This document shows positions 3,102 through 50,932 of a stretch of DNA of 64,000 nucleotides, piece by piece; the first letter of the stretch is position 1, and each line of letters starts with the position of its first letter. The DNA is from Patescibacteria group bacterium (GTDB taxonomy: Bacteria; Patescibacteriota; Minisyncoccia; Phycocordibacterales; PALSA-1337), in contig JBBTTD010000001.1 in the NCBI GenBank assembly GCA_038064415.1, positions 13,738-77,737 on the forward strand, given 5' to 3'. Made by a program: the position numbers and the translations under genes. Under the pieces are notes generated by a model. That model was given only the letters and a program-made list of their open reading frames with translations, searched no databases and was not told the origin of the DNA.

Positions 3102-3172
3102 GCAATTGATTGTTGAACTCGGGGGAATTAACTTTGCGTTTTTGTCATTTTTGTGTTACCATCGCCCCACTT

Positions 3173-5899
3173 ATGTCTGTGACGCGTAAAAAAACAAAAT
3201 CCTCAAATTTAACTCCCAAAATCCATGAGTCAATTCGAGGTGAGGAAAAAATTATCGTTAAAGGCGCGCGTACGCACAATCTGAAGAACATAACTGTGGA
3301 AATGCCACGCAATACTTTGATCGCTATCACCGGCTTATCAGGTTCCGGTAAATCTTCTTTGGCTTTTGACACCATTTTTGCCGAAGGACAGCGTAGGTAT
3401 GTTGAATCTCTTTCTGCCTACGCTCGCCAGTTTTTGCACAAAATGCAAAAACCCGATGTTGATGAGATCGTCGGTCTTTCACCGGCTATTTCCATAGACC
3501 AAAAATCTCGTTCCAATAATCCGCGTTCAACCGTGGCTACGATTACTGAAATATACGATTATTTGCGTATACTTTTCGCGCGCGTTGGCAAGCCGCATTG
3601 TCTGACCTGCGGTCGGATAATTCACCGCATCTCACAGGAAGAGATTTTGAATACTATTTTGAGTACTGTTACCACCCGCGCCACAAACGCCAAAAAAGTT
3701 TATGGGGTAAGTATTAGTGACGCAAAAATCCGGATCTACGCGCCAGTCGTGGTTGGACGCAAAGGCGAATATTATCAAATGCTTTATGATCTGCTCGGCA
3801 AGGGCTATGATCGTGTTCGGATTGACGGGACTATCAAACGTCTACGAGATCAGATAGTCCTGGAGAAAAATAAAAAACACGATATTGATATTTTAATTGA
3901 TGAAATTTTTATTAGCGAATTCAATGATCCTAAACAGTTGGACAATGCTCGTGAGAGATTATCCGAATCCATTGAACGAGCGGTGCATGAAGCGGAAGGT
4001 TTGATTCGCATTGAATATCCGTGGGATTCTGTCATTTCCCCGGCCGCGGAAATCAAGGGTCAAACCATTAATTTGAAAGAAGACGATAAGACTATGGATT
4101 CCCGCTTTCGCGGGAACGACAACGGCGAAACCTTGATGTCCGTGAAATTCATGTGTCCTTATGACGGTTTTTCGTATCCTGAAATAGAACCGCGTTTGTT
4201 TTCATTTAATTCACCGTATGGTGCTTGCACCGCCTGTAATGGTCTCGGTACTGAAGGATTATTCGCTGAAACAATCTGTAAAGTTTGTAATGGTGTTCGT
4301 CTACGCGATGAAGCTTTGCATGTCAAGATTGACGGCAAAAATATCGTTGACACGACTTCATTATCTATTGAAAAGGCAATTTTATATTTTGAAAAAATAA
4401 AACTGACTGACGCGGAAAAAGAAATTTCCAAAATCGTACTCAAAGAGATTCAAGCACGGCTTTCATTCATGGTAAATGTCGGGATTGAGTATCTGACGCT
4501 TGATCGGCGCGCTAATACTCTTTCCGGCGGGGAAGCTCAACGCATCCGTCTAGCTTCTCAACTTGGCTCCGGCTTGGTCGGCGCGCTTTATGTCCTAGAT
4601 GAGCCGACGATCGGTTTACATCAACGCGACAATGATCGTCTGATAGGGACTTTGATAAAACTTAGAGATATTGGCAATACCATAATAGTGGTTGAACACG
4701 ATGAAGACACTATGTTTGCTTCAGATTACATTATTGATATTGGTCCTGGCGCCGGAGTACACGGTGGCAAAGTCGTAGTCTCTGGATATCTTGACGATCT
4801 GGTTTCCGCCAAGAAAAATCCTTCCGGTTCATTGACTCTCGCTTATCTGCGAGGCGAGAAAAAGATTGATTTACCTCAAAAAAGGCGAGAACCAAAGGGT
4901 AAAATCACAGTGCGAGGCGGTCAAGTCTTCAATATTAAGGATTTGAACATAGATTTACCACTGGGCTGTTTGAATGCGATTACTGGAGTTTCTGGATCGG
5001 GGAAATCTTCCTTTATGTATGAAATTCTTCATAAGAATTTATCGGCGCGATTGGAGATGAGACATCGAAGCGATAAACCGATAAATTGCAAAGAATTTAA
5101 AGGTTCGGAATATGTTGGCCGTGTTATCTTGATTGATCAATCACCAATCGGTCGAACACCAAGATCAAATCCGGCAACCTATACCGGGGCTTGGACGCAT
5201 ATTCGCGACTTGTTTGCTTCAGAGCCGGAGGCGCGAGCGCGCGGTTGGGGCGCGGGGAGGTTTTCTTTTAATCGTCCCGGCGGTCGTTGTGAGGCCTGCG
5301 AAGGTAATGGCGAGATTGCCGTGGAAATGCATTTTTTGCCGACGGTTTATGTAACTTGCGATGTCTGCAATGGCAAACGCTTTACCAAAGAAACCCTAGA
5401 AATTCATTATCGTAAAAAAAATATTCATCAGATTTTGGATTTGACTATTGAAGATGGCTTGGAATTTTTCAAAGATATTCCAGTTGTTGAAGATCGCTTG
5501 CAAAGCATGATGGATGTCGGCTTAGGATACGTGAAGCTCGGTCAATCAGCCACGACTCTTTCAGGCGGTGAGGCACAGCGCGTCAAGATTTCTTCTGAAT
5601 TGTATAGAGCTCATCTTCAAAAAACGATTTATTTATTGGACGAGCCAACAGTTGGTCTGCATTATGAAGATGTTAAAAAATTGATTGATATTTTGCAAAA
5701 ATTAGTTGAAAAGGGGAATACGGTTGTTGTCATTGAACACAATCTTGATTTGGTTAAAAATGCCGATTATGTTATTGACATTGGTCCTGATGGTGGCGAG
5801 CGTGGCGGAAAAATTGTCGCCAAAGGCACGCCAGAAGATGTTGCCCGAAGTGAGAAATCATATACTGGGAAGTATCTGAAAGTGGCATTGAAGAAATGA
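3173..5899 (+). CDS. uvrA: Excinuclease ABC subunit A (UvrA)
   Basis: Two ABC ATPase modules (GLSGSGKSS, GVSGSGKSS; LSGGEAQR signature motifs twice) and zinc-finger Cys clusters. The start is set at the internal Met MSVTRKK, where homology begins. Confidence 0.9.
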   Translation: MSVTRKKTKSSNLTPKIHESIRGEEKIIVKGARTHNLKNITVEMPRNTLIAITGLSGSGKSSLAFDTIFAEGQRRYVESLSAYARQFLHKMQKPDVDEIVGLSPAISIDQKSRSNNPRSTVATITEIYDYLRILFARVGKPHCLTCGRIIHRISQEEILNTILSTVTTRATNAKKVYGVSISDAKIRIYAPVVVGRKGEYYQMLYDLLGKGYDRVRIDGTIKRLRDQIVLEKNKKHDIDILIDEIFISEFNDPKQLDNARERLSESIERAVHEAEGLIRIEYPWDSVISPAAEIKGQTINLKEDDKTMDSRFRGNDNGETLMSVKFMCPYDGFSYPEIEPRLFSFNSPYGACTACNGLGTEGLFAETICKVCNGVRLRDEALHVKIDGKNIVDTTSLSIEKAILYFEKIKLTDAEKEISKIVLKEIQARLSFMVNVGIEYLTLDRRANTLSGGEAQRIRLASQLGSGLVGALYVLDEPTIGLHQRDNDRLIGTLIKLRDIGNTIIVVEHDEDTMFASDYIIDIGPGAGVHGGKVVVSGYLDDLVSAKKNPSGSLTLAYLRGEKKIDLPQKRREPKGKITVRGGQVFNIKDLNIDLPLGCLNAITGVSGSGKSSFMYEILHKNLSARLEMRHRSDKPINCKEFKGSEYVGRVILIDQSPIGRTPRSNPATYTGAWTHIRDLFASEPEARARGWGAGRFSFNRPGGRCEACEGNGEIAVEMHFLPTVYVTCDVCNGKRFTKETLEIHYRKKNIHQILDLTIEDGLEFFKDIPVVEDRLQSMMDVGLGYVKLGQSATTLSGGEAQRVKISSELYRAHLQKTIYLLDEPTVGLHYEDVKKLIDILQKLVEKGNTVVVIEHNLDLVKNADYVIDIGPDGGERGGKIVAKGTPEDVARSEKSYTGKYLKVALKK

Positions 5900-5962: not shown

Positions 5963-7261
5963 ATGAAACGTCAAGCGATTATAAAACTGAAAATTCCAGA
6001 TACTCCTGGTGTCTATACATTTAGGGATTATAAAAAAAGACCGATATATATTGGTCGCGCGACTTCCATTAAAGATCGTGTTAAAAGCTATTTTTCTGAT
6101 GATCTTATGAATACGCGCGGTCCGCGAATAGTTGATATGATCACTAAGGCTAAATCTTTAAATTGGCAAGTTACTGATTCCGTGCTTGAAGCGATTATTT
6201 TAGAAAGCAAATTGATCAAAAGGTATCAACCTATATGCAATGTTGACGAGCGTGACGACAAAAGTTCACAATATGTGGTGATAACTGATGAGCTCTGGCC
6301 AAGGGTTTTTCTGGAGCGTGTCCGAGATTTTGATTCGCTTCGCTCCAGTCTGGAAAATTCATCGCATCAGCGAGAGCGTCTCAAATATTCCGTCAAGAAA
6401 TATTTTGGTCCATACCCGCATGGCGGACTGATCAAAGAAGTCCTAAAAATTCTGCGTAAACTTTTTCCGTTTAAGGATAAGAAGTCTTTTGATTCTCGTC
6501 ACGAAGCGTTTTATCAAGCATTAGGGAGATCTCCCGATCAGGATGACAATAATGCTCTAAAAAAATATCTTATGACAATTAAGTATCTAATTCTTTTCTT
6601 TGAAGGTAAGAAACAAAAAATCAGAAAACAGGTTGAACGAGAGATGAATTTGCGGGCCAGAGAATTACGATTTGAAGAAGCACAGCAGAGTAAAAGGATG
6701 TTGTATGCGCTTGACCACATAAATGACATTGCTCTGATAAAAGAAGAGAGATTACGAGTTTCAAATCATTCCTCCGCTGTGTCTGCAAATTCGGAATTAT
6801 TGCAAAGTAACGGATTTCGTATTGAGGCTTATGACATCGCTCATTTATCCGGTACTAATGTAGTTGGGGCTATGGTTGTTTCAATTGATGGAGAGTTTGT
6901 GCCATCAGAATATCGTAAGTTCAAAATTTCTCGGCAGAAAAATGATGATGTGGCGGGGCTCAAGGAAATTCTTACGCGCCGGTTGAATCATCCAGAGTGG
7001 GCATACCCGGATCTAATAGTTGTTGATGGCAATAAAGTCCAAGTTAGTTGTGCTGAAAATATTTTAAAGGTTCGTAGGATTGACATTCCCGTCGTGGCGG
7101 TTACGAAAGATCAAAGGCATAAAGCAATAGAATTGATTGGACATCCAACACTTATTTCTAAATATAAAAAGCAAATTATTACTTTAAATAGGAAAGCTCA
7201 TAGGTTTGTTATATCGTTTCATAGATCAAGCAGGAACAAATCTTTTAAGAATTTTAAATAA
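5963..7261 (+). CDS. uvrC: Excinuclease ABC subunit C (UvrC), short form lacking the C-terminal HhH
   Basis: N-terminal GIY-YIG (PGVYTF ... IYIGRA ... RVKSYF), a UvrBC-interaction region and an RNase-H-like endonuclease domain (YDIAHLSG ... DLIVVDGNKVQV). Only 432 aa. Confidence 0.8.
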   Translation: MKRQAIIKLKIPDTPGVYTFRDYKKRPIYIGRATSIKDRVKSYFSDDLMNTRGPRIVDMITKAKSLNWQVTDSVLEAIILESKLIKRYQPICNVDERDDKSSQYVVITDELWPRVFLERVRDFDSLRSSLENSSHQRERLKYSVKKYFGPYPHGGLIKEVLKILRKLFPFKDKKSFDSRHEAFYQALGRSPDQDDNNALKKYLMTIKYLILFFEGKKQKIRKQVEREMNLRARELRFEEAQQSKRMLYALDHINDIALIKEERLRVSNHSSAVSANSELLQSNGFRIEAYDIAHLSGTNVVGAMVVSIDGEFVPSEYRKFKISRQKNDDVAGLKEILTRRLNHPEWAYPDLIVVDGNKVQVSCAENILKVRRIDIPVVAVTKDQRHKAIELIGHPTLISKYKKQIITLNRKAHRFVISFHRSSRNKSFKNFK

Positions 7262-20329: not shown

Positions 20330-20335
20330 TAAAAT

Positions 20336-20379
20336 CAAGGTCGGACCTTGGGTGATTTGGAGCTAAGGTCCGACCTTGA
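20336..20379. repeat. Palindromic element family 1: two AAGGTCGGACCTT-type units in inverted orientation
   Basis: CAAGGTCGGACCTTGGgtgatttggagCTAAGGTCCGACCTTG. The exact reverse complement of this 43-bp sequence recurs at 50806-50850. Confidence 0.8.
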
Positions 20380-20416
20380 TTTTACGAACTTCCTCCATAT
20401 TTGTTATACTATCTTC

Positions 20417-25806: not shown

Positions 25807-27054
25807 ATGATAGATTCATGCTATATGTTCAGACGAAGAATATACCTAGATTATGCTTCATTGACTCCAATTGATCCTCAAGTCATTCGTGAGGTTAATA
25901 AGTATTCATCCATAACATACACCAATCCATCCTCTTTATATTTTGAGGGTGTTTCTGCTAAAAAAGCTTTAATTCAAGGCCGAAAAATTGTCGCTGATTT
26001 TATCAATGCTCATTCAGATGAGATTGTCTTTACTAGCGGCGGGACAGAAGCCAATAATTTAGCCTTGAATGGAGTAATTCAATCAGCGCGCGCTAATGGT
26101 ATAGAAAAACCTCATATTATTATTTCTTCCATTGAACATTCTTCTATTATTGAGACAGTTAATATATTGGAAAAACAAGGCTGTGAAGTTACGAGGTTGT
26201 CCGTAAATCATTCCGGAATTGTTTCTTTGGATGAATTGAGAAAATCTATTAAAGCGAATACGGTCTTAGTTTCCATAATGACGGTTAATAATGAAGTTGG
26301 AACGATTCAGCCGATTCGAGAGATTGCGAAAATTGTTAGACGAGCAAGATTGAAGTCAGACGAGCCCGCAGGTGGCGACAGTTCTCCCGACTTGAGCGAA
26401 GCGAAACGAAGGGAGAATCCTGTCGCGCCGAGAGGGCGAATGAATAATGTTTATCCGCTTTTTCACACTGATTCCGCGCAAGCGGCAATTTATCAAGATT
26501 TGAATGTAGAAAAACTTGGCGTTGACTTACTTACTCTTGATGGGAGCAAAGCATATGGTCCGCGTGGTATTGGATGTTTATATATAAGGAGAAATACACC
26601 AATTAATCCGATTATCTATGGCGGAGGTCAAGAATTCGGCATGAGGTCTGGCACAGAAAATCTTCCCGCGATTATGGGATTCGCGAAGGCGCTTCAAATC
26701 GCAAAGATTCAGGTTTTAAGATTCAGAATTCAAGAATTGAAAGATATGATGATATCTGGGTTAAAAGCAATTTATCCGAATATTGTTGTTAATGGCGGTG
26801 GGGAAGTCTCGCCACATGTTCTCAATGTTTCTATTCCCGGTATTGATAATGAATTTTTTGTTCTACAATTAGACGCCAAGGGGGTTGCTTGCTCAACTAA
26901 AAGTTCTTGTCTGCGCGATGAAGATGAGTCGTATGTCTTAAAGGCGATGGGTATAGACAGTAAAATTTCCGTTAGATTTTCATTTGGCAAGTGGACAAAA
27001 AAGAGGGAAATTGGGAGGGCATTAAAAGTTATTAAAAACCTTGCAATTCACTAA
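25807..27054 (+). CDS. Cysteine desulfurase (NifS/IscS family) carrying an in-frame roughly 33-aa insertion
   Basis: Class V aminotransferase motifs are present (FTSGGTEANN, FHTDSAQA, LDGSKAYGPRGIGCLY with the PLP Lys). An extra segment RLKSDEPAGGDSSPDLSEAKRRENPVAPRGRMN lies between conserved blocks. Confidence 0.8.
   Translation: MIDSCYMFRRRIYLDYASLTPIDPQVIREVNKYSSITYTNPSSLYFEGVSAKKALIQGRKIVADFINAHSDEIVFTSGGTEANNLALNGVIQSARANGIEKPHIIISSIEHSSIIETVNILEKQGCEVTRLSVNHSGIVSLDELRKSIKANTVLVSIMTVNNEVGTIQPIREIAKIVRRARLKSDEPAGGDSSPDLSEAKRRENPVAPRGRMNNVYPLFHTDSAQAAIYQDLNVEKLGVDLLTLDGSKAYGPRGIGCLYIRRNTPINPIIYGGGQEFGMRSGTENLPAIMGFAKALQIAKIQVLRFRIQELKDMMISGLKAIYPNIVVNGGGEVSPHVLNVSIPGIDNEFFVLQLDAKGVACSTKSSCLRDEDESYVLKAMGIDSKISVRFSFGKWTKKREIGRALKVIKNLAIH
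26355..26445. repeat. GC-rich hairpin-forming element inserted in-frame within the cysteine desulfurase CDS
   Basis: GCGACAGTTCTCCC-(22 nt)-GGGAGAATCCTGTCGC forms a near-perfect 14-bp inverted repeat. The local GC is far above the flanking coding sequence, and the segment encodes the extra peptide that IscS lacks. Confidence 0.6.
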
Positions 27055-32283: not shown

Positions 32284-32323
32284 AGCGAGGTCCGACCTTG
32301 ATATATTGAGGTCGGACCTCGCT
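32284..32323. repeat. Palindromic element family 1 (AGCGAGGTCCGACCTTGatatatTGAGGTCGGACCTCGCT)
   Basis: A perfect hairpin directly after the rpoB stop. It shares the GCGAGGTC(C/G)GACCTCGC core with 37762-37786. Confidence 0.8.
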
Positions 32324-36564: not shown

Positions 36565-36567
36565 TGG

Positions 36568-36692
36568 CGAAGGAGGCAGAATGTGTGCAGATACTGATTA
36601 ACAAAAGGTTATCATGATATTAGTTAAACTACCACGTCGTCTAACTTCTTAGTTGTTAATCAGTATCTGCACACATTCTGCCTCCTTTGCTT
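36568..36692. repeat. 125-bp element with perfect 36-38 bp terminal inverted repeats and a 46-nt loop
   Basis: GCGAAGGAGGCAGAATGTGTGCAGATACTGATTAACAA ... TTGTTAATCAGTATCTGCACACATTCTGCCTCCTTTGC, beginning 4 nt after the rpoC stop. Confidence 0.75.
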
Positions 36693-41965: not shown

Positions 41966-42101
41966 TTAAAAAGTAATCAAAGATTAAAGACGAACTTAGT
42001 AAACATGAATTTCGTAGAAGTTATGTTGCTTCACCACATTATTTTCATTGAGGGTTCTGCATAACTTCTACAAAATTCATGTTTACTAAGTTCACGACAT
42101 A

Positions 42102-45012: not shown

Positions 45013-46122
45013 ATGTCACTCTCAATCGGCATCGTCGGTCTCCCAAATGTTGGAAAATCAACCTTATTCAACGCGCTCACAAAAAAGAGCGTCCTAGTGG
45101 CAAATTATCCATTTGCGACAATTGATCCATCGGTCGGTGTCGTGGCGGTCCCGGATGATCGACTCTGGAAGTTGAGTGAATTCTCAAAATCAGCTAAAAC
45201 TATTCCTGCCGTCGTGGAATTCGTAGACATTGCGGGTTTAGTCAAAGGCGCGTCTGTCGATGAGGGACTCGGTAATCAATTCCTTTCAAATATCCGTGAG
45301 ACTGACGCTATCGCCGAAGTGGTGAGGATTTTTGAGGATGACAACATTATCCATGTTGATGGTAAAATCAATCCACTCAAGGATATTGAAGTCATAAATT
45401 TAGAACTTATTTTGGCTGATTTGCAGACAGTTTCAAAAAGGAGCTCAAATCTTGGTAAAGAAGTTAAGGCTGGCAAAAAAGAGGCGATTATTGAACAGGG
45501 TTTGATTCAGAAGTTAAAAATCGCGCTTGAAACGGGAAAATTCGCTTCTACCGTCATAGCTGATGAATTTGAGAAACCTTTTTTGAAATCACTTCACCTT
45601 CTGACATCTAAACCATTTATGTATGTTTTGAACAAGAAATCGGGTGGCAAAAATTTAGATGAATTTCAAGGTCCGACCTTGGATGAAAGATATATCTCGC
45701 TGATGGCGTTTTTTAAAGAAGTCAATGCTTCATGGGTAATTGTTGATGCCGGGATTGAACAGGAGCTCAAAGATATTGATGATAAAGATAAAAAAGAACT
45801 TCGCGAAGGTCTTGGCGCGAATGATGACGGGATTAATAATTTGATCAAAAAAGGCCACGAGCTTTTAAATTTGATTACTTACTTCACGACCGGGGAAGAC
45901 GAAAGTCGTGCCTGGACGATTAAAAAAGGTTGGACCGCGCCTGAAGCTGGTACCGCAATTCATGGTGATTTTAAGGATAAATTTATCCGCGCGGAAGTTA
46001 TTGAGTGGGATAAATTACTTGTCGCTGGTTCATTTGGCGTGGCGCGTGAAAAAGGACTTCTCCGCACGGAGGGAAAAGAGTATGTGGTCAAAGATGGGGA
46101 TGTGATGGAGTTTAAGATTTAG
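45013..46122 (+). CDS. ychF: Ribosome-binding ATPase YchF (Obg family)
   Basis: IGIVGLPNVGKSTLFNALT, G-domain motifs and a C-terminal TGS domain. Confidence 0.85.
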   Translation: MSLSIGIVGLPNVGKSTLFNALTKKSVLVANYPFATIDPSVGVVAVPDDRLWKLSEFSKSAKTIPAVVEFVDIAGLVKGASVDEGLGNQFLSNIRETDAIAEVVRIFEDDNIIHVDGKINPLKDIEVINLELILADLQTVSKRSSNLGKEVKAGKKEAIIEQGLIQKLKIALETGKFASTVIADEFEKPFLKSLHLLTSKPFMYVLNKKSGGKNLDEFQGPTLDERYISLMAFFKEVNASWVIVDAGIEQELKDIDDKDKKELREGLGANDDGINNLIKKGHELLNLITYFTTGEDESRAWTIKKGWTAPEAGTAIHGDFKDKFIRAEVIEWDKLLVAGSFGVAREKGLLRTEGKEYVVKDGDVMEFKI

Positions 46123-46530: not shown

Positions 46531-49482
46531 ATGATTACACTTATGAAAAATTCTGGCGAAAAAGTCAATCCAAAAGCGTTAAAATTACCTGCTTATGACC
46601 ATTCAAAGATAGAACCTAAGTGGCAAAAACTTTGGGAAAAACAAAAGTTTGACCAGGCCAGAGAAGATCCAAAGAAAAAGAAGTTTTACGGTTTAATTGA
46701 ATTTCCGTATCCATCCGGCGAAGGACTGCATGTTGGACATATTCGCAGTAATACAGCCATGGATATTATTGCTCGAAAGCGTCGAAGAGAAGGCTATGAA
46801 GTTTTGTTTCCTATCGGTTGGGATGCTTTTGGTCTGCCAACCGAAAATTACGCTATTAAGACTGGTATTCAGCCCGCCATAGTTACCAAAAAAAACACTG
46901 ATACATTTCGCCGACAATTGAAAGCGCTGGGTTTTTCTTTTGATTGGTCGCGTGAAATAGATACGACTGATCCCAAATACTATAAATGGACGCAGTGGAT
47001 ATTTTTGCAATTCTTTAAAAAAGGGCTGGCTTATAAAAAGAAAATGGCTATCAATTGGTGTCCAAAGGATATGATTGGTCTAGCAAATGAAGAAGTTGTA
47101 AATGGTTGTTGTGAACGATGTGGCACGCCCGTGGAAAAACGAGAGAAGGAACAATGGATGCTGGCTATTACTAAATATGCCGATCGATTAGACAGAGATT
47201 TAGATGAAGTTGATTTTCTGGAAAAGATTAAAATTCAACAAAGGAATTGGATAGGGAAGAGTGAGGGTGCGGAGATTGGGTTTAAGTTTGTCATTCCCGC
47301 CCTTGATGGAAGTCGAGGACATGCTCCAACGGGAATCCAAGATCACATTGCGAATTTTGTCTTGCTTCATGGATTTACCGCCACGCCAGATGATGATTTT
47401 CACCCTTGGCTCAAGAAAAAACTTGAAAATTTAGGATATAAAGTGCAAGCGCCGAAATTGCCGAATACTGAAAAACCCACAGAAAATGAGCAGGTTGAAT
47501 TTGTCCTAGATAATGTCAAGTTTGATGAAAATACTGTCTTACTTGGTCATAGTCTTGGTTCTGTGGTTGCTTTAAAGGTTTTAGAAAAACTTAATAAAAA
47601 GATCGCAGGACTTGTGACTGTCGGTGGATTTATTGATACAAACTTCAAAGATCATGACAGAAATTTTGCTGAAAGATTTGGATGGGACTTTGATTTTAAT
47701 AAAATAAAATTAAATGTTAGTTTTATTCGTGTTTTACACGATAAAAATGATGTAGCGATTACTGATGGTCAAGCCAAGAGATTAGCCACTGCTTTGGGAG
47801 TAAATGTTATTGAGCGCATGGCTAATGAGGGTCATTTTTGCGCAAAAGAAGAACCAGCTATATTTGAAGTCATCATACCAAGTATAAAAGTCTTCACGAC
47901 TCGCCCAGATACATTATTTGGCGTGACTTATCTGGTTCTCGCGCCTGAACATCAATTGGTAAAAGAACTTTTGCCAAATGTTCAAAATAAGAAAGAAGTT
48001 GAAGATTATATTTCCAAAACTAAAAAGGAAACTGATATTGAACGCGCTGACGCTTCAAAAGAAAAAACAGGCGTTGAGTTGAAAGGAATTAAGGTTATAA
48101 ATCCAGCAAATAACGAAGAACTACCAGTTTGGATTGCTGATTATGTTTTGGTTGACTACGGCACTGGCGCTGTAATGGCTGTGCCGGCGCATGATGAGAG
48201 GGATAAACAATTTGCCCAAAAATATAGTCTGCCAACCAAAGAAATTATTCTCGCAGATAAAAAAGAAATAATTACTGAATTTGGAAAATCAGTTACCACC
48301 TACAAACTTCGTGACTGGGTGTTTTCACGCCAAAGATACTGGGGTGAGCCCATCCCTGTAGTGCATTGCGAACAATGTGGGATTGTTCCCGTGCCAGAAA
48401 AAGATTTGCCGGTTAAATTACCGAAAGTAAAAAATTATCAGCCGACGCAGACTGGAGAATCACCGCTAGCTTCAATTGGAAAGTGGGTGAATACTAAATG
48501 TCCGAAATGTAAAGGCAAAGCTCGTCGCGAAACAGATACAATGCCTCAATGGGCTGGCTCAAGCTGGTATTATCTGCGCTACGCTGATTCAAAAAATAGT
48601 AAAGTTTTTGCCGGTAAAGATAGACTGAAGTATTGGACGCCAGTAGACTGGTACAACGGTGGAATGGAGCATACAACATTGCATCTGCTTTATTCTCGTT
48701 TTTGGCATAAATTCTTATTTGATTTAGGTTTAGTGCCGACAAAAGAACCATATCAAAAAAGAACCTCACATGGACTCATTCTAGCCGAAGGTGGCGCTAA
48801 AATGTCAAAATCAAGAGATAATATTGTCAGTCCCGACGATATTGTGAAGATTGTTGGCGCGGACTCTTTGCGTCTTTACGAAATGTTTATGGGACCCTTT
48901 GACCAACCAATCGTCTGGAATACGGATAATATTGCCGGGGTCAGGAGGTTTATTGAGCGAGTGTGGAAAATGAGAGAAAAAGTCGTTCAAAAAATGGACG
49001 AAAAGATTGATGATTTTGTGTTGATCAACAAGATTATCCACAAAGCTATCAAAAAAGTCAGCGACGATATTGAAGCGATGAGATTTAATACTGCCATCAG
49101 CGCGCTCATGATTACATTCAATGAACTTGAAAAATTCAGAGTTGTTGATATAGAACAATATGGAGTTTTTCTTAAATTACTGGCACCATTTGCGCCACAT
49201 GTGACTGAAGAATTGTGGGCATCTCTGAATCATAAAAATTCTATTCATACGACTGAATGGCCGATGTATGATCCAGTTTTGGCGATTGATTCACAGACAA
49301 CTATCGTTGTCCAAATAAATGGCAAAATGCGTGGCTCATTCACTGTTCCAATTGATATCAGTAAGGAAGAATTAGAAAATCGCGCGCGGACATTACCAGA
49401 ATCCGCGAAGTGGTTGGAAGGGAAGAGTATCATGAAGATAGTTGTTGTTCCCAATAAGTTAGTCAATTTTGTCATAAAGTAG
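46531..49482 (+). CDS. leuS: Leucyl-tRNA synthetase with an inserted alpha/beta serine-hydrolase (YdeN/RBBP9-like) domain
   Basis: Class I motifs (HVGH, KMSKS), a CP1 editing domain (TTRPDTLFGVTYLVLAPEH) and a C-terminal anticodon-binding region. About 195 extra residues (aa 254-449) lie between NWIGKSEGAEIGF and the editing domain. They include LLHGFTATPDDDFHPWL, GHSLG (GxSxG), a conserved Asp and ANEGHF. Confidence 0.85.
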   Translation: MITLMKNSGEKVNPKALKLPAYDHSKIEPKWQKLWEKQKFDQAREDPKKKKFYGLIEFPYPSGEGLHVGHIRSNTAMDIIARKRRREGYEVLFPIGWDAFGLPTENYAIKTGIQPAIVTKKNTDTFRRQLKALGFSFDWSREIDTTDPKYYKWTQWIFLQFFKKGLAYKKKMAINWCPKDMIGLANEEVVNGCCERCGTPVEKREKEQWMLAITKYADRLDRDLDEVDFLEKIKIQQRNWIGKSEGAEIGFKFVIPALDGSRGHAPTGIQDHIANFVLLHGFTATPDDDFHPWLKKKLENLGYKVQAPKLPNTEKPTENEQVEFVLDNVKFDENTVLLGHSLGSVVALKVLEKLNKKIAGLVTVGGFIDTNFKDHDRNFAERFGWDFDFNKIKLNVSFIRVLHDKNDVAITDGQAKRLATALGVNVIERMANEGHFCAKEEPAIFEVIIPSIKVFTTRPDTLFGVTYLVLAPEHQLVKELLPNVQNKKEVEDYISKTKKETDIERADASKEKTGVELKGIKVINPANNEELPVWIADYVLVDYGTGAVMAVPAHDERDKQFAQKYSLPTKEIILADKKEIITEFGKSVTTYKLRDWVFSRQRYWGEPIPVVHCEQCGIVPVPEKDLPVKLPKVKNYQPTQTGESPLASIGKWVNTKCPKCKGKARRETDTMPQWAGSSWYYLRYADSKNSKVFAGKDRLKYWTPVDWYNGGMEHTTLHLLYSRFWHKFLFDLGLVPTKEPYQKRTSHGLILAEGGAKMSKSRDNIVSPDDIVKIVGADSLRLYEMFMGPFDQPIVWNTDNIAGVRRFIERVWKMREKVVQKMDEKIDDFVLINKIIHKAIKKVSDDIEAMRFNTAISALMITFNELEKFRVVDIEQYGVFLKLLAPFAPHVTEELWASLNHKNSIHTTEWPMYDPVLAIDSQTTIVVQINGKMRGSFTVPIDISKEELENRARTLPESAKWLEGKSIMKIVVVPNKLVNFVIK

Positions 49483-49495
49483 GCCGTATAGTAGA

Positions 49496-49602
49496 CAAGA
49501 AAACAGTATGCGCATTTTATCTCAAGACAAGAGAGTCTTGTCTCGCGAGTCACATAACTACCATCTTTGGATTTGAGATAAAATGCGCATACTGTTTTCT
49601 TG
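49496..49602. repeat. 107-bp element with perfect 30-bp terminal inverted repeats and a 47-nt loop
   Basis: CAAGAAAACAGTATGCGCATTTTATCTCAA ... TTGAGATAAAATGCGCATACTGTTTTCTTG, starting 14 nt after the leuS stop. The loop contains an inner hairpin GACAAGA..TCTTGTC. Confidence 0.75.
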
Positions 49603-49755
49603 CTTAAAATACACTTTGTTTATATTTGACAACGATAAGACAATACTGTAGTGTATACCAATCAAGCCTGGGTGTGGGATTACGCACATTCCCACAAGAT
49701 TGACTTTGTTACAAGCTAGTGATACAAATATATAAATTATTTATTAGCAACTATT

Positions 49756-50793: not shown

Positions 50794-50805
50794 GAAATAA
50801 AAAAA

Positions 50806-50850
50806 CCAAGGTCGGACCTTAGCTCCAAATCACCCAAGGTCCGACCTTGG
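50806..50850. repeat. Palindromic element family 1 (exact reverse complement of the 20336-20379 copy), flanked by an A-run and a T-run
   Basis: AAAAAACCAAGGTCGGACCTTagctccaaatcaccCAAGGTCCGACCTTGGTTTTTTT has the shape of a bidirectional terminator. Confidence 0.8.
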
Positions 50851-50932
50851 TTTTTTTAAATAGTCCTCGGCAATAAAAACATGTGTGCACTATTATTGTT
50901 TTTGGTTAAGCTGTTCATGTTATAATAGTGGC

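Follow-up and report, generated by a model that had tools for sequence, protein, structure and literature searches.

What is a GC-rich hairpin doing inside the reading frame of a cysteine desulfurase gene? The gene lies in a 64-kb stretch of DNA (hereafter the window), which is part of a 125-kb contig from a Hainich groundwater metagenome (0.1 µm fraction). A preliminary description of this DNA had proposed that the gene was entered, in frame, by a selfish palindromic element resembling those of Rickettsia. Here we describe the insert and its host gene, the homologous copies found in related genomes, and the explanations that may account for them.

The insert and its host gene

The host gene (25825-27054, + strand, with an alternative upstream ATG at 25807) encodes a class-V PLP-dependent cysteine desulfurase of the NifS/IscS type with 409 residues. 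Its product matches the Pfam family PF00266 (2.6e-61) and the solved cysteine desulfurases of the PDB (up to 8e-69). The PLP lysine and the catalytic cysteine of the solved enzymes correspond to K242 and C362 in the alignment; neither residue varies among 35 orthologues, and both are intact in the window protein. The identical protein is found on three contigs, and among its relatives the annotation is Patescibacteria, Paceibacteria or Minisyncoccia.

All PDB alignments of the protein are interrupted at the same point. Residues 174-207 (26344-26445, + strand) have no counterpart in solved homologues and stand opposite one homologue residue (9wep chain positions 176 to 178), which leaves about 33 extra residues, as the preliminary description had counted. 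The sharp GC enrichment that it reported is also borne out: over 80 nt, GC content rises to a peak of 0.65 in the insert, whereas the mean of the window is 0.395 (sd 0.066). Elsewhere in the window, GC content also peaks in tRNA genes, in conserved motifs of UvrA, RpoB and RpoC, and in glycine-rich or other coding sequence; no hairpin insert is among these peaks. Inverted-repeat search and folding recover the 14-bp near-perfect inverted repeat with a 22-nt loop that had been described. The left arm of this inner hairpin, GCGACAGTTCTCCC, occupies 26375-26388 and the right arm, GGGAGAATCCTGTCGC, 26411-26426 (both + strand), the arms being interrupted by one 2-nt bulge. The loop (26389-26410, + strand) includes GCGAAGC, a motif of the repeat family discussed below, and a pentamer run, GCGAA/GCGAA/ACGAA. 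Outer pairs (GGTG/CGCC and GCCC/GGGC) lengthen the hairpin to about 21 bp. The fold of the insert is moderately unusual, with a z-score of -2.5 to -3.0 as RNA and -1.1 as DNA, so the strength of the case rests on homologous copies elsewhere and not on the hairpin alone.

Covariance models place the repeat copy itself at 26360-26443 (84 nt) on the - strand, antisense to the gene, as a member of a family of GC-rich palindromes of about 82-93 nt. Read in the frame of the gene, this copy would encode EPAGGDSSPDLSEAKRRENPVAPRGRM, about 27 hydrophilic residues, and SDEPAGGDSSPDLSEAK is one of the peptides that would be expected from translation through the segment.

The position of the insert is variable in other desulfurases as well. 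The comparison covered 120 homologues (55-67% identity) together with 62 orthologous loci for which DNA was available. In the orthologous loci, the stretch between the I-V-R and Y-P-L-F-H-T-D motifs ranges from 6 to 43 residues, and its sequences are unrelated. A homologous, non-palindromic insertion shared by the orthologues, the case that would have spoken for an ancient lineage-specific loop, is contradicted by this comparison. The AlphaFold model of the window protein (mean pLDDT 83.9, pTM 0.84) shows the insert as coil between a helix (164-177) and a strand (212-216) that bears the H-T-D motif; pLDDT is <50 at residues 189-205. The insert is accordingly modelled as a disordered loop at a length-tolerant site. 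It had been suggested that the insert be mapped on the structure to see whether it sits on a surface loop; the model gives a loop, and its position at the surface is probable, judging from the predicted disorder.

A dispersed family of palindromic repeats

The insert has homologous copies in the loci fetched for comparison, which are denoted here by L and a number. A BLAST search of the inserts against these loci matched the window insert to the insert of the L156 desulfurase (88% identity over 34 nt, in reverse orientation). It also revealed, on the L095 contig, a second copy of the desulfurase insert at a distance of 2 kb (98.6% identity over 71 nt). When the window insert is reverse-complemented, it can be aligned over its whole length with those of L095 and L156, which occupy the same loop. 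The three elements have in common the termini CGCCCTCTCGGCG and CCTGCGGGC, an apical stem TCTCCC/GGGAGA and the loop motif GCTTCGC, and their middle stems differ by paired changes.

A first covariance model was built from four sequences (the window copy, the two L095 copies and the L156 copy). In 730 kb of loci from Paceibacteria it detected three further members (E 1e-8 to 4e-8), whereas 1.12 Mb from unrelated organisms yielded nothing below E = 4; these control loci came from a protein-guided scan of genome contigs and, among the matches listed, mostly represent distant desulfurases. The window copy scores 74 bits with model R1 and 63.8 bits with model R2. To avoid circularity, model R3 was rebuilt without the window sequence; it matches 26360-26443 on the - strand with 39.6 bits and E = 1.1e-8, covariance-model E-values being rough. 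The second-best match of R3 in the window, a long hairpin of generic type, reaches 17 bits.

The alignment of the seven members contains 30 stem pairs with 90.9% of cells paired, and 18 of these pairs have changed on both sides, as counted on the alignment fitted to the model. None of 500 shuffles matches the stem statistics, and slid controls give 40-54% pairing. The family in about 730 kb of related loci thus totals seven distinct copies at six loci, three of them in cysteine desulfurase genes, one each in the genes for IF-2, GyrB and ValRS, and one intergenic.

The copies outside the desulfurase gene lie in varied surroundings. The second L095 copy is in frame in the IF-2 gene, within 12 kb of the first, and encodes the peptide ALSARGALPPISPLRSEITGDSS; this copy and the L095 desulfurase insert specify nearly the same peptide, ALSA[G/R]GALPPISPLRSEITGDSS. 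The L117 copy is in frame and antisense in the GyrB gene, at a point where solved GyrB chains are without about 39 residues. It shares its translated frame with the window copy (AAAGESSP...SPKGRN vs PAGGDSSP...APRGRM). The L129 copy is in frame in the ValRS gene, in a variable region before the DTWFSS motif. The intergenic copy, in L088, adjoins other known-looking repeats; that intergenic region also holds repeat peptides (WIPAFAGMT, SRLRGNDKK) related to the one read from a hairpin in the window uvrA gene, which is described in the next section. Judging from the low-confidence coil of the desulfurase model, the variable length of its loop and the GyrB site without a counterpart in solved chains, the insertion sites are ones that the protein fold can accommodate.

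Six of the seven copies lie inside long open reading frames that run on into conserved domains, with the frame kept and no stop codon introduced. The intragenic copies are divided equally between sense and antisense (three each) and use at least three reading frames; five to six of the six frames of each are free of stops. The elements have a GC content of 62-70%, whereas that of the flanking host DNA varies between 38 and 58%. Directly after the 3' end of the element (in the orientation of the model), the pentamer CTGAC occurs in three of the seven copies, namely those of the window (26355-26359), L129 and L088, and may be a conserved tail or a target motif. On the evidence of their sequences, a dispersed palindromic repeat inserted in frame in housekeeping genes of related genomes is supported. 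The preliminary reading of the insert as an RPE-like selfish palindromic element finds its support in the copies in IF-2, GyrB and ValRS and in the match to R3.

Several searches beyond these loci gave null results. In the source genome, the single copy is the only one in the 64-kb window and 10 kb beyond it, searched with filters off. No consistent flanking direct repeat indicative of target-site duplication is seen among the seven copies, and no pair of filled and empty sites was found at nucleotide resolution. The exact hairpin pattern gave no hit in GTDB genome contigs, either because the source genome is absent from the representatives or because the copy differs. Rfam contains no match to the element at E <=10, so it is not a fragment of a curated RNA family. 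At the protein level, a 40-residue insert query found no candidate in a protein library, itself included, and with all translated frames concatenated only P0001 and P0011 came back. Nothing at E <=0.001 was returned when the 33-residue insert was searched exhaustively with HMMER against 1.84 billion representative proteins. Short peptides cannot reach significance in libraries so large, and these peptide nulls therefore exclude only near-identical in-frame copies. Two candidates were rejected: a pair of viral-contig matches to a three-block motif scored about 12 bits with the model and is attributed to chance in GC-rich contigs, and a weak nhmmer match in uvrC (6329-6383, E = 0.003) was unsupported by the covariance models.

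Repeated use of one loop and other hairpins

The three desulfurases that carry the element (window, L095 and L156) are 58-68% identical pairwise, and each has closer relatives without it. The element lies 7 residues after I-V-R in the window, 1 in L095 and 10 in L156 (3, 0 and 6 residues, respectively, before Y-P). The window element is, in addition, inverted relative to the other two. Since the carriers are not sisters and the offsets and orientations differ, at least three independent insertions into one desulfurase loop must have taken place. The differing offsets are better explained by selection for a permissive place than by a nucleotide-specific target. The search for other copies and orthologues that had been proposed in the preliminary description thus favours its reading: homologous inserts are present in only two other desulfurases, neither of them a sister, in the opposite orientation. 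L117 has a family copy in its GyrB gene, yet its desulfurase loop is short.

The age of the window insertion can be compared with that of the split from a sister genome (seen in GCA_964361975.1 and in other Hainich samples), whose desulfurase is 92% identical as protein and diverges by 5.5% in nucleotides across the gene. No differences fall in the 84-nt element, compared with 68 in the remaining 1146 nt. The presence of the identical 84 nt in the sister genome implies that the insert predates the split and is not an assembly artefact. About 2-3 of 14 90-nt windows elsewhere in the desulfurase gene are also free of differences; the identity of the element is therefore not clearly exceptional, and we make no claim of special constraint. 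At the left boundary, sequence comparison reveals an 11-nt direct repeat on the + strand between the native VRRA codons (GTTAGACGAGC, 26335-26345) and the end of the element (GTCAGACGAGC, 26355-26365), the native member sitting 20 nt upstream of the other. The repeat is perfect in the sister genome (L168, same positions) and is limited to these two genomes, none of the other family copies having an equivalent between flank and element.

Other hairpins have entered the same loop. Several longer inserts of orthologues at this position are GC-enriched hairpins, those of L156, L095, L142 and L118 having z-scores of -5.4 to -6.3. The inserts of L142 (5545-5631, z-score -6.1), L144 (5482-5604, z-score -2.1) and L118 (121-180, z-score -6.3) are unrelated and fold strongly; that of L118 consists of two copies of the palindrome AGGTCAGACCT. 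The desulfurase of L083 (Paceibacteria) has two in-frame copies of another, different small hairpin repeat, GSNHPSTSSGQAK (5536-5598 and 5855-5894), one in the same loop as the window insert and one in a second loop, and a third, partial copy is found elsewhere in the locus. One enzyme loop is thus colonised repeatedly, by this family in at least three independent insertions and by other hairpin families.

The window itself contains a further palindrome family, different from that of the desulfurase insert. Its short palindrome AGGTCNGACCT occurs ten times (641, 20338, 20366, 32288, 32309, 37769, 45669, 50809, 50837 and 56590) where 0.02 occurrences are expected, including in uvrB and ychF. 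At 20330-20384, 32284-32323 and 50798-50858 the palindrome is arranged in inverted pairs that have A/T-rich flanks and look like terminators. The palindrome in ychF, CAAGGTCCGACCTTGG (45667-45682), had been taken as a sign that the same process acts on other genes of this DNA. It is real, and the suggestion fits the presence of AGGTCNGACCT in the same desulfurase loop of L162 and L163, the closest orthologues with fetched DNA, and also of L118 and L121.

Additional observations on the window concern other genes. UvrB (21-2129, + strand) has an insertion relative to all solved UvrB chains at residues 422-461 (1284-1403), which coincides with a 110-nt palindrome (1291-1400) with 38-nt arms, 97% complementary, and a 34-nt loop; this hairpin insert is in frame, in the same genome, and unrelated to the desulfurase element. 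UvrA (3110-5899, + strand) has about 32 residues more than solved UvrA chains at about 4010-4125, with a hairpin, GGATTCCCGCTTTCGCGGGAACGAC, that is read as MDSRFRGNDN. Three intergenic palindromes of about 100-125 nt, each unique (36567-36690, 41992-42093 and 49486-49612), lie just past the stop codons of rpoC, of a gene for a 351-residue membrane protein and of leuS. In the leucyl-tRNA synthetase encoded by leuS (46531-49482), the editing domain is immediately preceded by a serine hydrolase domain of the alpha/beta hydrolase fold (PF06821, 7e-11; residues 277-440).

Origin of the insert and comparison with known elements

We consider it likely that the segment at 26360-26443 is an antisense copy of a non-autonomous, GC-rich palindromic family of Paceibacteria (Patescibacteria/CPR), and this judgement covers both its identity and the following steps. 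The family would spread, or would once have spread, as selfish DNA that needs the hairpin in order to move, and this need would account for the compensatory changes by which the stem is maintained. The copies that survive in compact genomes would be the ones whose insertion into a permissive loop kept the frame and brought no stop codon, which would explain the repeated use of the same loop. For the desulfurase, the insert would most likely be neutral or nearly so.

The insert could instead have arisen in place, by slippage or duplication in a permissive loop, as a lineage-specific expansion in which the hairpin is a by-product and no dispersed element is involved. The hypervariability of the loop in all orthologues, the pentamer run within the hairpin loop, the 11-nt direct repeat at the left boundary and the absence of a second family copy from the window are all compatible with such an origin. 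It is, however, largely refuted by the full-length homologous copies in IF-2, GyrB, ValRS and intergenic DNA of other genomes, in both orientations, and by the detection of the insert with a model blind to the window sequence (E = 1.1e-8), and we regard it as exceedingly improbable. The hairpin could also have been kept for a host function in RNA or DNA, such as a site of mRNA processing or stability, a signal for ribosome pausing or co-translational folding, or a site for protein binding or recombination. Compensatory changes in the stem, the identity of the 84 nt between genomes that diverge by 5.5% across the gene, and the high GC content of the element despite the lower GC content of its flanks would be expected of a functional hairpin. 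Stem conservation is equally expected, however, if mobility needs the hairpin, and the gene has further difference-free windows. The elements occur in either orientation to transcription and in unrelated genes, most orthologues, the closest ones included, are without them, and Rfam has no match. A host function of this kind is therefore improbable in our view.

A role could also lie in the peptide, as an adaptive protein module (for instance, a new surface loop that binds a partner) that was recruited a single time and kept thereafter. The insert is in frame, stop-free and hydrophilic, it is retained in the sister species, and the loop, to judge from its predicted disorder, is probably at the surface. 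Against this, the differing orientations and frames of the copies yield unrelated peptides (EPAGGDSSPDLSEAK..., ALSAGGALPPISPLRSE..., VSLGREQSSEERSERG...), the peptide has no relative among the 1.84 billion representative proteins, and the region is predicted to be disordered; recruitment as a module is very improbable.

Beyond the identification of the insert as a copy of a mobile palindromic family, a broader reading may be entertained, tentatively and with considerable doubt: that several hairpin families of Patescibacteria live mainly in the coding sequence of essential genes, re-enter the same loops in either orientation, and are moved by a structure-specific mechanism of a kind so far not described in this phylum. 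A candidate mechanism would be a hairpin-recognising single-strand DNA transposase that cuts beside a CTGAC-like motif; alternatively, the elements might integrate into pre-existing hairpins. If this reading were true, hairpin families would continually supply CPR proteins with new surface loops. The covariance model can be used for a census of the family and in the search for a mobilising enzyme. A full-text search of a collection of papers found no description of such elements in CPR/Patescibacteria. The family can be compared with the small palindromic elements of other bacteria.

MITEs are defined by target-site duplication. Like them, the Patescibacteria element is small, non-autonomous and composed of inverted repeats that fold into a stem-loop, and its in-frame position recalls the occasional fusion of MITEs with ORFs in frame (PMC3184786). 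Unlike MITEs, the family has no target-site duplication in its seven copies, six of which are intragenic, and the whole element is one hairpin, to which its inverted-repeat termini belong, where MITEs have a core between terminal inverted repeats.

REPs are extragenic, clustered palindromes of about 20-40 nt, and REP/BIME elements are mobilised by Y1 transposases called RAYT (TnpA-REP). The family shares with REP/BIME elements the character of GC-rich imperfect palindromes, stems kept by compensatory changes and the lack of target-site duplications. The CTGAC found after three of the seven copies recalls the cleavage-site or target motifs beside their hairpins. The Patescibacteria elements differ from REPs in being about 85 nt long, solitary and, in six of seven cases, intragenic.

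Selfish palindromes that sit in frame inside genes count among the curiosities of the textbooks and are known chiefly from Rickettsia, where the Rickettsia palindromic elements (RPE) were reportedly described by Ogata et al. 2000. Published accounts present RPEs as dispersed hairpin repeats that lie in frame in housekeeping genes unrelated to one another, where the fold of the protein can accommodate them (PMC10969869, PMC3184786). The family shares with RPEs the dispersed, long-hairpin palindromes, their in-frame position in housekeeping genes, their translation (here predicted from the frame) as extra peptide segments that suit the fold, and the lack of a known transposase. It differs in size, its 82-93 nt falling outside the RPE range of about 105-150 nt, and in belonging to another phylum, in being GC-rich in a genome of about 40% GC, and in using both orientations and more than one frame. 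Its copy number also appears low in the window genome (one in 74 kb). The family can be said, by analogy, to behave like RPEs; the likeness would be one of behaviour, and sequence homology is not expected. The same behaviour of in-frame palindromes is now seen in CPR/Patescibacteria, another lineage with small, gene-dense genomes. This helps to explain part of the length variation and the odd GC-rich, low-complexity inserts of CPR proteins, and calls for caution over repeat-derived segments among annotators and users of structure prediction. To what is known of RPEs, the desulfurase adds the case of a single loop that hairpins have entered again and again.
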